From: Escherichia coli
Lineage (GTDB): Bacteria; Pseudomonadota; Gammaproteobacteria; Enterobacterales; Enterobacteriaceae
Length of the DNA stretch: 64,000 nucleotides
Strand: one strand, 5' to 3'
NCBI RefSeq assembly: GCF_003334815.1
Contig: NZ_QOWO01000005.1
Shown here piece after piece: positions 2,241-6,731 of this stretch (positions are counted from its first letter, which is position 1; the number at the start of each line of letters is the position of its first letter). The notes beneath the pieces were generated by a model, which did no database searches, was not told where the DNA came from, and saw nothing but the letters and a program-made list of their open reading frames with translations. Position numbers and translations under genes: made by a program.

Positions 2241-4655
2241 TCACCCCGCAAACTGCCTGAACAGCGCCTTACCCTTAACCAGTCGCGCACCCAGCCAGCC
2301 GCCGAAAAGCGACAGCAGCAGCGCTCCGCTGCACGGCAGAACAATCCACAATCGCCAGTCTGGCTCCCACGGAAAATCAAACACTTTCGCCTGCAACACT
2401 GCCAGCGCCGTTTCCGCACCAATTGCGGCCACCAGGCCGGAAACAAACCCAAGCATGGCGAACTCACACCACAACGTGGTACGCAGCAGTTTTTTCCCCG
2501 CACCGAGTGTGCGCCACACCACCAGCTCCTGATGACGCTGACGCATTCCCACCTGCACCTGTGCCAGCAACAGCAACATACCGCAGGCGGTGACCAGTAC
2601 CACCATCACTTCCAGCGCCCGACTTACCTGCTCCAGCACCTGACCGACCTGTTTTAAAATCGCGCCAATATCTAACAGGCTAATGGTCGGGAACTGGCGG
2701 TTGAGTTGTGTCAACATGCCGTTGCCATTCTCCCAGCGGAAACTGGTAAGCCAGCTCTGCGGTTGCCCGTCTAATGCCCCTTCAGGGAAAATAAAATAGA
2801 AATTAGGCCGCAGACTTTCCCAGTCCACTTTGCGCAGGCTGGTCACTTTAGCGCGGAACTCCTGGGTATCGCCCATAAAAGTCACGGTATCACCGAGGGC
2901 AACGTTTAAGCGTTTCGCCAGCCCCTCTTCCATCGACACTTCATCGGCTTTTGGCGGCCAGTTACCGGCGACAATCGGATTATGATCGGGCCGCGTATTT
3001 TGCCAGGTAAGATTGAGTTCGCGGTTAAGCGCCTCATCTTCATTACCTTCTGTCGGCTTATCGTTAATCGCCGTCAGCCGCGCCCGCACCACCGGATAAA
3101 ACGATTCCGGGACTATCTGATGTTCCGCGAGGAACGCTTTTAGCGGTGCTACCTGTTCTGTGGCGATGTTAATTAAAAAGTAGTTCGGGCTTTCTGGAGG
3201 TAGCTGCTGCTGCCAGCGGTCGAGCAGATCGCCACGCAACACCAGCAGCAGTGCCAGCAGCATAAAGGAGAGCGAAAATGCCGAAAGCTGACTTAACGTT
3301 GACCACGGCTGACGTAACAGGCGGCTAACCGCCAGGCGCAGAGGCAGCGATTTCAGCGTCATGCGGCGAAGTACATTCAGCAGCATCCAGCCCAGCACAC
3401 CGCACAGCAAAGCCAGTACTACCGCGCCCGCCAGCACCGCCCAAAGCAGCATGCTGCCACCCATTAATCCGGCGAGCAGCAGCACAACCACCACACTGAC
3501 AATCGGCAGATAAAACTTCAGCGGCCAGACGTTCGCTACCACATCATTACGTAATACGCGTAAAGGCTGCGTTGCCAGCAACAAGCGATATGGTCGTAGC
3601 CCCACCAGCAGCGAGATGACCGTCATGGTGCCAAGCGCCCACAGCCACGGCCAGAGGCTGGCTGGCGGTAGTGCAGCAGGCAGAACGGGCTTGAGCAGCA
3701 CCATCAACACGTTTTCGAACAACAGGCCTATGGCCCCACCGGTAACGGCTGAAAGCGTCAGCACCATCAACCACTGACCGACGATTAGCTTACGCAGTTG
3801 CGCTCGCCCTGCCCCCAGCGTTTTGAGGATCGCCACCAGATCGTAGCGACTGCGACAGTAATGATTCATCGCTACCGCCACCGCTGCCACTGCCAGCAGC
3901 AAGGTCAGAAGCGCCGAAAGCAGCAGGAACTGTTGCGAGCGTTCCATCGATCGCCCCAGCGCGCCTTCGTCCTGTTCCAGACCGTACCAGCGTTGTTCGG
4001 GTTTAAGCTGAGGTAACAACCATTTCTCATAGCCGTCGAGCTGGTTCTCGTTGCCGCCGAATTTATAACGCCAGGTGACCCGACTCCCCGGCTGCACGGC
4101 TCCGGTTTTATCGACATCCGCCAGATTCATCATCAGACGCGGAGCCATCTGGAAGGGGTTAAAACCGGAATCCGGTTCCTGAATCACTTCTCCGGCAATC
4201 CGCAAGGTGGCATCGCCCACGTCAATGGTGTCGCCCGTTTTCAGGTTAAGCAGTGCCATCAGGCGTGGGGCCAGCAATACGCTGCCCGCCTGCGGTTTCA
4301 GGCCAGGGGGATTAGTTTGCAGATCGCCATACATCGGGTAGATATCATCCACCGCTTTGACGTTCGCCAGCTGCGGTGTGTCGCCTGCAAAGGTCATTGT
4401 GGCGAAAGTCAGCTGCTTGCCGACTTTCAGGCCGCGCTTTTGCGCTTCCTCCAGCCACGCTTGCGGCACTTCGCGTGAACTGCGCAACGCCCGATCGCCC
4501 GCCATAAACTCACGGCTTTGCTGGCTTAAGCCCTTCTCCATGCGATCGCTGATATTGCCCAGCGCCAGCACGCAGGCCACCGCCAGGCTTAGCGCCAGCC
4601 AGACAATTAATAGCGACGGCGAACGCCATTCGCGCCAGAACCAACGTGCAATCAT
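2241..4655 (-). CDS. ybbP: FtsX-family ABC transporter permease (804 aa)
   Basis: ORF track 804 aa, MIARWFWREW...; multiple TM segments; start overlaps ybbA stop in ATGA. Confidence 0.93.
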   Translation of the reverse strand: MIARWFWREWRSPSLLIVWLALSLAVACVLALGNISDRMEKGLSQQSREFMAGDRALRSSREVPQAWLEEAQKRGLKVGKQLTFATMTFAGDTPQLANVKAVDDIYPMYGDLQTNPPGLKPQAGSVLLAPRLMALLNLKTGDTIDVGDATLRIAGEVIQEPDSGFNPFQMAPRLMMNLADVDKTGAVQPGSRVTWRYKFGGNENQLDGYEKWLLPQLKPEQRWYGLEQDEGALGRSMERSQQFLLLSALLTLLLAVAAVAVAMNHYCRSRYDLVAILKTLGAGRAQLRKLIVGQWLMVLTLSAVTGGAIGLLFENVLMVLLKPVLPAALPPASLWPWLWALGTMTVISLLVGLRPYRLLLATQPLRVLRNDVVANVWPLKFYLPIVSVVVVLLLAGLMGGSMLLWAVLAGAVVLALLCGVLGWMLLNVLRRMTLKSLPLRLAVSRLLRQPWSTLSQLSAFSLSFMLLALLLVLRGDLLDRWQQQLPPESPNYFLINIATEQVAPLKAFLAEHQIVPESFYPVVRARLTAINDKPTEGNEDEALNRELNLTWQNTRPDHNPIVAGNWPPKADEVSMEEGLAKRLNVALGDTVTFMGDTQEFRAKVTSLRKVDWESLRPNFYFIFPEGALDGQPQSWLTSFRWENGNGMLTQLNRQFPTISLLDIGAILKQVGQVLEQVSRALEVMVVLVTACGMLLLLAQVQVGMRQRHQELVVWRTLGAGKKLLRTTLWCEFAMLGFVSGLVAAIGAETALAVLQAKVFDFPWEPDWRLWIVLPCSGALLLSLFGGWLGARLVKGKALFRQFAG

Positions 4656-5338
4656 GCTTCCTCCTGCAACTGCCCGTTCACCAGCCGTAAGCAGCGGTCG
4701 CAGCGTGCCGCCAGTTGCAGGTCGTGGGTCACCATAATCAACGTGGTGCCATGTTCACGGTTGAGGGAAAACAGCAGGTCGGCAATTTTATCGCCCGTCT
4801 GGCGGTCAAGGTTGCCGGTGGGTTCGTCGGCAAACAGCACATCAGGTCGACCATTAAAGGCTCGTGCCAGCGCCACTCGTTGCTGTTCACCGCCGGAAAG
4901 CTGTGCCGGAAGATGATCCAGACGTTTACCCAGCCCTAACTGTTCGAGCAACGCTTTCGCCCCGTTACGACTTTCCGCGCTACTCTCACCGCGCAGCAGA
5001 GCCGGAAGCTCGACGTTTTCCAGCGCGTTAAGGGTAGGAATTAACATAAATGACTGAAAAACAAAGCCGACGTGCTTCGCGCGCAACTTTGCCCGCGCTT
5101 CTTCGTCCATATTATGTAGCGGTTGTCCCACCAGACTCACTTCGCCACTGCTGCCGTCATCAAGCCCGGCGAGGATCGCCAGCAAGGTTGACTTACCCGA
5201 TCCCGACTCGCCCACCAGTGCGATGGTCTCGCCACGTTTGACAACCAGCTCAACTCCGGTGAGGATGGAGAGTTCATGCTCCCCCTGACCGACGGACTTC
5301 TTAAGATGATGAACTTCAACAATGTTTTCCGCTGGCAT
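4652..5338 (-). CDS. ybbA: ABC transporter ATP-binding protein (228 aa)
   Basis: ORF track 228 aa MPAENIVEVHHL...; Walker A GESGSGKST, signature LSGGEQQR. Confidence 0.93.
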   Translation of the reverse strand: MPAENIVEVHHLKKSVGQGEHELSILTGVELVVKRGETIALVGESGSGKSTLLAILAGLDDGSSGEVSLVGQPLHNMDEEARAKLRAKHVGFVFQSFMLIPTLNALENVELPALLRGESSAESRNGAKALLEQLGLGKRLDHLPAQLSGGEQQRVALARAFNGRPDVLFADEPTGNLDRQTGDKIADLLFSLNREHGTTLIMVTHDLQLAARCDRCLRLVNGQLQEEA

Positions 5339-5932
5339 TTGCCCTTCCTGTTCCTGGTCCTGTTAACCTTCCGTGCCGCCGCAGCGGACACGTTATTGAT
5401 TCTGGGTGATAGCCTGAGCGCCGGGTATCGAATGTCTGCCAGCGCGGCCTGGCCTGCCTTGTTGAATGATAAGTGGCAGAGTAAAACGTCGGTAGTTAAT
5501 GCCAGCATCAGCGGCGACACCTCGCAACAAGGACTGGCGCGCCTTCCGGCTCTGCTGAAACAGCATCAGCCGCGTTGGGTGCTGGTTGAACTGGGCGGCA
5601 ATGACGGTTTGCGTGGTTTTCAGCCACAGCAAACCGAGCAAACGCTGCGCCAGATTTTGCAGGATGTCAAAGCCGCCAACGCTGAACCATTGTTAATGCA
5701 AATACGTCTGCCTGCAAACTATGGTCGCCGTTATAATGAAGCCTTTAGCGCCATTTACCCCAAACTCGCCAAAGAGTTTGATGTTCCGCTGCTGCCCTTT
5801 TTTATGGAAGAGGTCTACCTCAAGCCACAATGGATGCAGGATGACGGTATTCATCCCAACCGCGACGCCCAGCCGTTTATTGCCGACTGGATGGCGAAGC
5901 AGTTGCAGCCTTTAGTAAATCATGACTCATAA
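5306..5932 (+). CDS. tesA: Thioesterase I / protease I / lysophospholipase L1, SGNH hydrolase (208 aa)
   Basis: Trimmed from ORF 5276..5932 to ATG at 5306 giving MMNFNNVFRWHLPFLF... signal peptide then GDSLSAG motif. Confidence 0.9.
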   Translation: MMNFNNVFRWHLPFLFLVLLTFRAAAADTLLILGDSLSAGYRMSASAAWPALLNDKWQSKTSVVNASISGDTSQQGLARLPALLKQHQPRWVLVELGGNDGLRGFQPQQTEQTLRQILQDVKAANAEPLLMQIRLPANYGRRYNEAFSAIYPKLAKEFDVPLLPFFMEEVYLKPQWMQDDGIHPNRDAQPFIADWMAKQLQPLVNHDS

Positions 5933-6731
5933 AGCAACGGAGATCCTGACAGGTAAAGTTATGCAAAAATCGGTCTTAATTACCGGATGTTCCAGTGGAA
6001 TTGGCCTGGAAAGCGCGCTCGAATTAAAACGCCAGGGTTTTCATGTGCTGGCAGGTTGCCGGAAACCGGATGATGTTGAGCGCATGAACAGCATGGGATT
6101 TACCGGCGTGTTGATCGATCTGGATTCACCAGAAAGTGTTGATCGCGCAGCCGACGAGGTGATCGCCCTGACCGATAATTGTCTGTATGGGATCTTTAAC
6201 AATGCCGGATTCGGCATGTATGGCCCCCTTTCCACCATCAGCCGTGCGCAGATGGAACAGCAGTTTTCCGCCAACTTTTTCGGCGCACACCAGCTCACCA
6301 TGCGCCTGTTACCCGCGATGTTACCGCACGGTGAAGGGCGTATTGTGATGACATCATCGGTGATGGGATTAATCTCCACGCCGGGTCGTGGCGCTTACGC
6401 GGCCAGTAAATATGCGCTGGAGGCGTGGTCAGACGCACTGCGCATGGAGCTGCGCCACAGCGGAATTAAAGTCAGCCTGATCGAACCCGGTCCCATTCGT
6501 ACTCGCTTCACCGACAACGTCAACCAGACGCAAAGTGATAAACCAGTCGAAAATCCCGGCATCGCCGCCCGCTTTACGTTGGGACCGGAAGCGGTGGTGG
6601 ACAAAGTACGCCATGCTTTTATTAGCGAGAAGCCGAAGATGCGCTATCCGGTGACGCTGGTGACCTGGGCGGTAATGGTGCTTAAGCGCCTGCTGCCGGG
6701 GCGCGTGATGGACAAAATATTGCAGGGGTGA
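5922..6731 (+). CDS. ybbO: Short-chain dehydrogenase/reductase (269 aa)
   Basis: ORF track 269 aa; TGCSSGIG Rossmann motif; start overlaps last 11 nt of tesA. Confidence 0.92.
   Translation: MTHKATEILTGKVMQKSVLITGCSSGIGLESALELKRQGFHVLAGCRKPDDVERMNSMGFTGVLIDLDSPESVDRAADEVIALTDNCLYGIFNNAGFGMYGPLSTISRAQMEQQFSANFFGAHQLTMRLLPAMLPHGEGRIVMTSSVMGLISTPGRGAYAASKYALEAWSDALRMELRHSGIKVSLIEPGPIRTRFTDNVNQTQSDKPVENPGIAARFTLGPEAVVDKVRHAFISEKPKMRYPVTLVTWAVMVLKRLLPGRVMDKILQG

Follow-up and report, generated by a model that had tools for sequence, protein, structure and literature searches.

Evidence for a conserved head-to-head coding overlap of tesA and ybbA in Escherichia coli, with a candidate tesA promoter inside ybbA

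Genes and start codons at the tesA/ybbA junction

The DNA analysed here is a stretch of 64,000 nucleotides from Escherichia coli (contig NZ_QOWO01000005.1 of assembly GCF_003334815.1), referred to as the window. It is E. coli chromosome in reverse-complemented orientation with respect to MG1655, the genome coordinate being 525071 minus the window coordinate. The genes tesA, for a lipid hydrolase, and ybbA lie head to head on opposite strands (Table 1), and the MG1655 annotation (tesA at 519139..519765 on the minus strand, ybbA at 519733..520419 on the plus strand) gives an identical overlap of 33 bp. In the RefSeq/PGAP annotation of another strain, tesA starts at the second ATG (window position 5309), which reduces the overlap to 30 bp. 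The overlapping stretch was found at an identity of at least 95% in 5419 of 5426 complete E. coli genomes. An earlier note on this DNA, made from the letters alone, had described a divergent overlap of the two 5' coding ends at 5306-5338, with the first 11 codons of each gene on opposite strands; the sequence, the list of open reading frames (ORFs) and the MG1655 annotation all agree with the overlap, and the codon count is correct as stated with the K-12 start. YbbA, read from the minus-strand ORF, starts with MPAENIVEVHHL (in longer form MPAENIVEVHHLKKSVGQGEH...), and the 208-aa TesA product from 5306 starts with MMNFNNVFRWH (given as MMNFNNVFRWHLPF...). YbbA is identical to chains of PDB entries 9GE6-9GE8 and TesA to 1IVN and 9GE8, and both proteins have thousands of homologues, which establishes both frames as real, functional protein genes.

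Table 1 Features at the tesA/ybbA junction in window coordinates; fractions of 81 refer to the comparison set described in the text
Feature	Position	Strand	Remarks
ybbA coding sequence	4652..5338	-	228 aa + stop; ATPase subunit of the YbbAP ABC transporter; from the ORF list; MG1655 b0495
Predicted -35 element, TTGACA	5238..5243	+	within ybbA V32-V33-K34; invariant in 81/81, including three consecutive synonymous sites
Predicted -10 element, GAGGAT	5261..5266	+	17 nt after the -35 element; reverse complement of ybbA I25-L26; AAGGAT in most relatives
Upstream in-frame ATG	5276..5278	+	possible 218-aa TesA precursor; 63-bp overlap if used
tesA leader segment, CTGACCGACGGAYTTCTTAAG	5285..5305	+	conserved; weak Shine-Dalgarno-like CGGA at 5293-5296; ybbA codons 12-18 near-invariant
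First ATG of the ATGATG pair	5306..5308	+	K-12 annotated tesA start; non-start codon in 23/81
tesA coding sequence (K-12 annotation)	5306..5932	+	208 aa + stop; from the ORF list; MG1655 b0494; conserved start probably 5309, 3 nt inward
Dual-coding core	5309..5338	both	tesA M-N-F-N-N-V-F-R-W-H opposite ybbA M-P-A-E-N-I-V-E-V-H
ybbA start codon	5336..5338	-	ATG; plus-strand CAT in 81/81; sole start between the upstream in-frame TAA and codon 22
TTG abutting the ybbA start	5339..5341	+	only tesA start avoiding the overlap; chosen by some gene callers (197 aa)
ybbA Shine-Dalgarno sequence, CAGGAAGGG	5342..5350	-	tesA signal-peptide codons Pro-Phe-Leu (CCC TTC CTG)

With the K-12 start of tesA, both strands code for protein over the 33 bp from 5306 to 5338, a length of 11 codons in each gene. 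The two frames are codon-aligned and antiparallel, codon position 1 of tesA facing codon position 3 of ybbA. Every codon of tesA faces a single ybbA codon as its reverse complement (ATG/CAT, AAC/GTT, TTC/GAA and onwards to CAT/ATG), so that the third base of a codon in either gene serves as the first base of the codon facing it. On the YbbA side, the shared stretch encodes the N-terminus and the first beta-strand of the ATPase domain. In solved structures of TesA, the chain begins at residue 27 (ADTLLILG); residues 1-26 are therefore the cleaved signal peptide, and of this the overlap encodes no more than the N-terminal part.

The start codons were compared in 80 loci from other Enterobacteriaceae and Erwiniaceae species, aligned in register, which together with the window make 81 sequences. 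For ybbA, an in-frame TAA lies 9 codons upstream of the start, and no ATG, GTG or TTG is present within the first 21 codons according to the sequence and the ORF list. Homology of YbbA to the solved ATPase domains of MacB, LolD and MJ0796 starts at residues 4-10, which align with residues 2-11 of the closest untagged homologues; the N-terminus can therefore not be trimmed. The ybbA start proposed in the earlier note was thus borne out by its invariance, by homology reaching to the N-terminus and by a strong Shine-Dalgarno sequence, and the internal in-frame start for which that note had suggested a check has no candidate codon within the first 21. The Shine-Dalgarno sequence CAGGAAGGG forms a duplex with the 3' end of the 16S rRNA of -7.0 kcal/mol, beyond the 5th percentile of random positions. 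Taken together, sequence and conservation show that the ybbA ribosome-binding site lies within the TesA signal-peptide codons at 5342-5350.

For tesA, the frame is open from ATG 5276, with ATG 5306, ATG 5309 and TTG 5339 in frame further along, and automatic gene callers give TesA lengths of 194, 197, 204, 207, 208 and 218-220 aa. Because the callers disagree so widely on this start, the case looked doubtful. Codon 5309 is the conserved start in the comparison, with an ATG in all 81 sequences, whereas codon 5306 was ATG in 58, ACG in 22 and ATA in one, and is not conserved as a start. These counts argue for 5309 as the conserved tesA start and for a conserved overlap of 30 bp (5309-5338) instead of 33 bp. 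The comparative data also suggest that the K-12 start of tesA is better read as ATG 5309, the adjacent ATG 5306 possibly being used in E. coli as well; the choice between the two leaves the mature TesA protein unaffected. Of the start at 5306 given in the earlier note, the overlap thus stands, while the codon itself does not appear to be the conserved one. A 5' extension artefact was not found for ybbA, and for tesA it concerns one codon only (5306 versus 5309).

The other two in-frame codons were examined in the same way. At 5339, TTG was found in 62 sequences and GTG in one; the remaining 18 carried a non-start codon (CTG, TGG, TAC, TAT, CTC or TTA), and no Shine-Dalgarno sequence precedes the TTG (-1.5 kcal/mol). 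We rejected TTG 5339 as a tesA start on conservation. Initiation of tesA further downstream, which according to the earlier note would speak against the overlap, thus lacks a conserved codon at 5339, and 5309 lies only 3 nt from 5306. Codon 5276 was ATG in 50 sequences, GTG in 17, TTG in two, CTG in 11 and CCG in one, and seven loci had no in-frame tesA start at all between the upstream stop and 5306. As the conserved start, ATG 5276 was likewise rejected on conservation, and it was retained as a minority possibility for E. coli itself. It is preceded, nine nucleotides ahead, by a strong Shine-Dalgarno-like duplex (-7.9 kcal/mol) formed by the same bases as the -10 element proposed below, whereas the duplex for ATG 5306/5309 is weak (-3.2 kcal/mol) and near the random median. 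Given this difference, the main tesA start in E. coli could lie further upstream than 5306/5309. In the comparison as a whole, the start codons of tesA and ybbA lie beyond each other, and no conserved usable start avoids the overlap.

Synonymous constraint and a candidate tesA promoter inside ybbA

Synonymous codon-choice entropy was computed per codon over the 79 distinct ybbA sequences, codons 36-228 (the rest of the gene) serving as reference with a mean of 1.23 bits; third positions in this part of the gene differed in 48% of pairwise comparisons. The entropy dropped to 0.16 bits in codons 1-10 (5309-5338, the coding overlap; Mann-Whitney p = 3e-6 against codons 36-228), to 0.49 bits in codons 11-35 (5234-5308, upstream of the tesA start; Mann-Whitney p = 9e-8) and, within the latter, to 0.20 bits in codons 24-29 (p = 5e-5), p-values that are not exact because the 81 sequences are related. 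The constrained region contains a gap at codons 19-23 (5270-5284), where the entropy of 1.21 bits was no different from the reference. Codons 12-18 and 24-29 were near-invariant and codons 32-34 fully invariant, with codons 19-23 and 30-31 free. Among degenerate ybbA codons, 11 of 29 in the first 35 were codon-invariant, compared with 1 of 160 in the remainder. The constraint showed no gradient; it ended abruptly at codon 35, with normal variation from codon 36. The two longest runs of invariant bases in ybbA were 5330-5338, in the start region, and 5236-5244 (GTTTGACAA). On the tesA side, codons 1-10 had a synonymous entropy of 0.03 bits versus about 1.1-1.2 bits elsewhere, and suppression was restricted to codons 1-14 (5309-5350), that is, the overlap and Pro-Phe-Leu, variation being normal from 5354.

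Histidine codons that face a start codon illustrate the same constraint. The ybbA His10 codon opposite ATG 5309 was always CAT and never CAC, and the tesA His codon opposite the ybbA ATG was also always CAT; in contrast, ybbA His21 was CAT in 48 and CAC in 17 sequences. Invariant start codons in combination with CAT-only opposing His codons make the overlap more than chance, and the shared stretch is nearly frozen because almost any base change alters one protein or the other. Dual-coding constraint and conservation in orthologues were thus both observed, and a distant locus with 70% TesA identity (L083) has the same overlap of 30-33 bp. The collapse of synonymous variation in ybbA codons 1-35 marks the shared coding, the ybbA ribosome-binding site in tesA and likely the tesA promoter. 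From the combined data we consider it very probable that tesA and ybbA form a genuine, evolutionarily conserved head-to-head coding overlap.

A scan of 4900-5800 for strict sigma-70 consensus sequences and terminators returned no promoter, and a weight-matrix scan was then used instead. In the latter, TTGACA-17-GAGGAT was the best plus-strand sigma-70 match in 5100-5650, with a score of 10.55 compared to 8.76 for the 99.99th percentile of the background. The strict scan had missed this candidate because its -10 element matches only three of six positions. Both hexamers were kept in all 81 sequences, among them the 12 loci that lack a start codon at 5276, the -10 element reading RAGGAT throughout. 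Invariant synonymous sites were found at ybbA V32, V33, K34, I25, G28 and V29. The candidate therefore has the two hexamers, a spacing within 16-18 nt and a conservation beyond the needs of the host protein, as expected of an embedded sigma-70 promoter. The Ile25 codon of ybbA is always ATC even though ATT would give a better -10 element, so that something besides -10 strength also constrains that site. We infer from these features a tesA promoter TTGACA-17-RAGGAT followed by a leader of roughly 35 nt, both written in ybbA codons 11-34, with a predicted transcription start near 5272-5274. The leader region 5272-5345 folds no better than shuffled sequences (z = 0.68), and no Rfam match was obtained in 5000-5700.

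Alternative readings of the start codons and of the constraint

Two alternatives concern the place where tesA begins. One treats the overlap as an annotation artefact, with tesA beginning at TTG 5339 next to the ybbA ATG, so that the genes would touch without overlapping. Divergent overlaps are indeed rare and long ones usually stem from 5' extension errors (PMC2478687), some gene callers output TesA proteins of 197 and 194 aa starting there, the starts in distant lineages abut or overlap by only 2 nt, and among the 69-70 sequences with a Leu codon at this position 62 use TTG, an uncommon choice for Leu. We nevertheless give this reading hardly any chance. The 18 sequences with a non-start codon and the lack of a Shine-Dalgarno sequence speak against it, the resulting signal peptide MPFLFLVLLTFRAAAA would be without a charged N-terminal region, and the invariance of ATG 5309 comes with a CAT-only His10 codon in ybbA that YbbA alone does not require. 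In the other alternative, tesA would initiate at ATG 5276 to give a 218-aa precursor and a 63-bp overlap in E. coli, and the GGTRAGGATGGA block (5258-5269) would be a Shine-Dalgarno sequence and not a -10 element. The stronger duplex upstream of this codon, the presence of ATG, GTG or TTG in 69 of 81 sequences, a frame that is open between 5276 and 5306 in all loci and the choice of the 218-220-aa form by several gene callers are consistent with it, as is the fixation of ybbA I25 as ATC, which preserves the G of AAGGA. Against it, the codon is CTG or CCG in 12 sequences, including the seven loci without an in-frame start upstream of 5306, and GGTRAGGAT is equally conserved in these. Moreover, ybbA codons 19-23 (5270-5284) vary freely at synonymous sites, the invariant TTGACA exactly 17 nt upstream would be left unexplained, and the homologous hexamer in distant lineages is promoter-like (TAAAAT, TAGAAT, AAGAAT) and not Shine-Dalgarno-like. 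We therefore regard initiation at 5276 as improbable, although clearly less so than the artefact.

The third alternative accepts the overlap and concerns the origin of the constraint upstream of it. Codon choice and mRNA folding are known targets of selection at the beginning of bacterial genes, and the suppressed variation in ybbA codons 11-35 might reflect such needs of ybbA itself (mRNA structure, a translation ramp, or a site for a small RNA or a protein) and not tesA signals. Besides this known type of selection, the ATC-only Ile25 fits such an origin, not being what a -10 element alone would select. The pattern of the constraint, on the other hand, argues against it: instead of a gradient there are interruptions at the free codons 19-23 and 30-31 and an abrupt end just upstream of TTGACA, codons 32-34 being invariant and codons 35-37 variable. 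The constraint also reaches 100 nt into the gene, beyond usual start-proximal effects, and the predicted tesA leader has neither a significant fold nor an Rfam match. Needs of ybbA alone are thus a very improbable origin of the constraint, less credible than initiation at 5276 and more so than the artefact. The preferred reading remains a 30-bp coding overlap with a predicted tesA promoter and leader upstream of it, inside ybbA.

Distant loci, promoter geometry and related systems

Eight distant TesA representatives from gammaproteobacterial lineages, with identities of 41-70%, were traced to their contigs, and the spacing between the start codons was taken as called. In all eight, ybbP-ybbA is divergent from tesA. 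The spacing was -33 bp in L083, which has the same sequence motifs as E. coli, -8 bp in Wenzhouxiangella (L090), -2 bp in Vibrio (L084, a shared CATG) and in Alcanivoracaceae (L091), 0 bp in L086, +21 bp in L092, +25 bp in L088 and +52 bp in Kangiellaceae (L089). None of these loci can accommodate two promoters and two leaders between the genes. Placing signals within the neighbouring gene is therefore common to the whole family, and Enterobacterales show it in the form of a 30-bp coding overlap. The spacings are also evidence that near-zero packing of tesA and ybbA may be ancient. In seven of the eight, the -10 element of the best or second-best promoter match was the reverse complement of the conserved YbbA Ile-Leu, as in E. 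coli, an agreement across lineages that is partly built in, as any Ile-Leu dipeptide gives a -10-like NAGDAT/YAADAT on the opposite strand. Weak -35 elements were paired with strong -10 elements (TAAAAT, TAGAAT, TAAGAT) in the distant lineages, and vice versa.

For ybbA, a weight-matrix scan of 260 nt in 82 loci gave no consistently placed promoter match, and with tesA synonymous sites beyond 5354 unconstrained, no conserved ybbA promoter is visible there. Motifs resembling sigma-E and sigma-54 promoters were rejected by eye on account of their wrong spacing. The geometry requires a ybbA promoter located deeper within tesA. The earlier note had placed each promoter and ribosome-binding site inside the coding sequence of the partner; this held for the ybbA ribosome-binding site. 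Suppressed synonymous variation strongly indicates it for the tesA promoter and leader, and the ybbA promoter was not located. With the signals of each gene inside the other, overlap of the 5' transcripts is unavoidable, and the two promoters would face each other, both mRNAs being complementary across both translation-initiation regions. Neither gene was found in the supplements searched of the studies by Cappable-seq (PMC4782308), SMRT-Cappable-seq (PMC6131387), differential RNA-seq of E. coli and Streptomyces (PMC4681348), in vitro run-off RNA-seq (PMC10301672) and tetracycline ribosome profiling (PMC4909307). An older primer-extension study obtained no product for ybbA (PMC2760140).

An old arrangement in which tesA is packed against ybbAP with zero spacer may have reached its extreme in this overlap; the proteins encoded by these genes form one physical complex. 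The tesA start would have shifted about 10 codons upstream into ybbA in Enterobacterales. The two genes would then probably dampen each other's expression, by antisense pairing or transcriptional interference, without this being a designed switch. A more far-reaching reading takes the zero-spacer packing as an ancient, selected regulatory device across Gammaproteobacteria and not just neutral genome compaction, with face-to-face promoters and antisense pairing setting the ratio of hydrolase to transporter. The Ile-Leu and Val-Val-Lys codons of YbbA would then harbour the tesA promoter, and the mRNAs of the periplasmic hydrolase and of its ABC-transporter partner would each be antisense to the region where translation of the other begins. 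We consider this reading unlikely.

Neighbouring divergent genes with antisense-overlapping transcripts are known as divergent excludons, a concept that originates from Listeria. On RNA-seq coverage, tesA-ybbA was listed among 16 divergent excludons of E. coli MG1655 and was found in at least half of 58 samples (ExcludonFinder, NAR 2025, PMC12288877). It shares this listing with the others and differs from them in two respects: excludons typically overlap in untranslated regions, whereas here the coding sequences themselves overlap, and they typically show mutually exclusive expression, whereas TesA and YbbAP act jointly as a single complex, an argument against strict mutual exclusion. YbbAP-TesA has been described as a physical complex whose operons "partially overlap", with similar arrangements in other Gram-negative bacteria and a suggested co-regulation (PLoS Biol 2025, PMC12646458); the K-12 b0494/b0495 overlap reported there is the identical locus with the same 33 bp. 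The overlap as such is thus already known from the K-12 annotation and from both studies (PMC12646458, PMC12288877). In the literature searched we did not find 5309 as the conserved start, the codon-aligned frames, the frozen ybbA codons 1-35 or the promoter candidate inside ybbA.

Divergent overlaps account for about 1% of overlapping gene pairs, and all of those longer than 60 bp that were examined in 338 genomes proved to be start-codon errors (Palleja et al. 2008, PMC2478687). The tesA/ybbA pair belongs to the same divergent class and its tesA start is ambiguous among gene callers (194-220 aa). It differs from the misannotated cases, which exceed 60 bp, in its length of 30-33 bp, in having both starts invariant in the 81 sequences and in lacking a conserved downstream alternative. 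At 30 bp, a true divergent overlap falls inside the range that is accepted, though such cases are uncommon. Bacteria have few genuine head-to-head coding overlaps, and these are usually put down to wrongly assigned start codons; tesA/ybbA would be a clean, conserved counter-example in the best-studied genome, and its products have recently been shown to assemble into one membrane complex. These findings leave the current view of gene organisation as it was. What the comparison adds is a quantified dual constraint, a specific tesA promoter candidate in ybbA codons 24-34 and the probably ancient near-zero spacing.

In practical terms, a change made near the 5' end of tesA or ybbA also changes the neighbouring gene, which matters for knock-outs, recoding projects, CRISPRi guides and the "leaderless" TesA constructs used in fatty-acid production. 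Expression of tesA is likely to be disturbed if ybbA codons 1-35 are recoded synonymously. The candidate tesA promoter can be tested by point mutations that are synonymous in ybbA.

A further overlap is present at the other end of ybbA, where ybbA and ybbP share 4 nt in a co-directional ATGA at 4652-4655. Such co-directional ATGA overlaps resemble tesA/ybbA in that two coding sequences share bases in a conserved arrangement. They differ in that they lie on one mRNA and act via ribosome re-initiation, whereas tesA and ybbA are on opposite strands and on different mRNAs, so that no translational coupling is possible between them.

Ile-Leu codons of YbbA and the opposite strand

In the window and in six distant gammaproteobacterial tesA/ybbA loci (L084 from Vibrio, L086, L088, L089, L090 and L092), a −10-like hexamer is read on the strand opposite the codons for a conserved Ile-Leu pair of YbbA. 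The hexamers found at this position are TAAAAT, TAGAAT, TAAGAT, AAGAAT, GAGAAT and TAATAT, with AAGGAT in enterics. A −35-like hexamer lies in the Val/Ile-x-Lys/Asn codons of YbbA, 17 to 19 nt upstream of the −10-like hexamer, and a trade-off between the two was observed across loci, the −35 being weak where the −10 was strong and strong where the −10 was weak. Read from the sequences, the codons of this ABC-ATPase motif may form a putative antisense promoter.

Invariant hexamer within the spacer of the proposed tesA promoter

Gly28 and Val29 of YbbA are encoded by GGA, a rare glycine codon in enterics, and GTT in all 79 distinct ybbA sequences, so that AACTCC is invariant between the −35 and −10 hexamers of the proposed tesA promoter. 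This sequence is accounted for neither by the −35/−10 model nor by the rival reading, in which the block at 5258-5269 is the Shine-Dalgarno sequence of the tesA ATG at 5276. AACTCC could be a putative regulator-binding site.

Start of mature TesA and ybbA-strand candidates

Where mature TesA starts, the Asp and Thr codons GAC ACG have unusually low synonymous variation, of 0.59 and 0.33 bits, the rest of the region being unconstrained. A weak −10-like TAACGT on the ybbA strand, present in less than half of the loci, overlaps the ACG codon. On the same strand of L088, a GTTACA-17-TATAAT candidate ends 5 nt ahead of the ybbA ATG; the L088 sequence suggests a leaderless ybbA mRNA, with the predicted −35 within the first tesA codons.

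Junctions with ybbO and ybbP

In the in-frame start comparison, the equivalent of the ybbO ATG at 5961 was present in all 80 Enterobacterales loci, being the sole in-frame start in 38 of them, and that of the ATG at 5922 in only about 31. The conserved ybbO start is therefore probably 5961, and the annotated overlap of ybbO with tesA is likely due to a 5′-extended annotation of ybbO. In the ORF list, ybbA and ybbP overlap co-directionally by 4 nt, which is usual where ABC transporter subunits are translationally coupled.

Coordinates of the features (window positions unless stated)
Feature	Position	Detail
ATGA	4652-4655	ybbA stop and ybbP start
AACTCC	5252-5257	ybbA Gly28-Val29
−10-like hexamer	5261-5266	opposite Ile-Leu
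Ile-Leu, six distant loci	ybbA codons ~20-28	
GAC ACG	5387-5392	tesA
TAACGT	5390-5395	ybbA strand
ybbO ATG, K-12 annotation	5922	11-nt overlap with tesA (stop 5930-5932)
ybbO ATG, alternative	5961	MQKSVLITG..., seven codons ahead of TGxSSGIG motif
GTTACA-17-TATAAT	L088 1948-2010	ybbA strand
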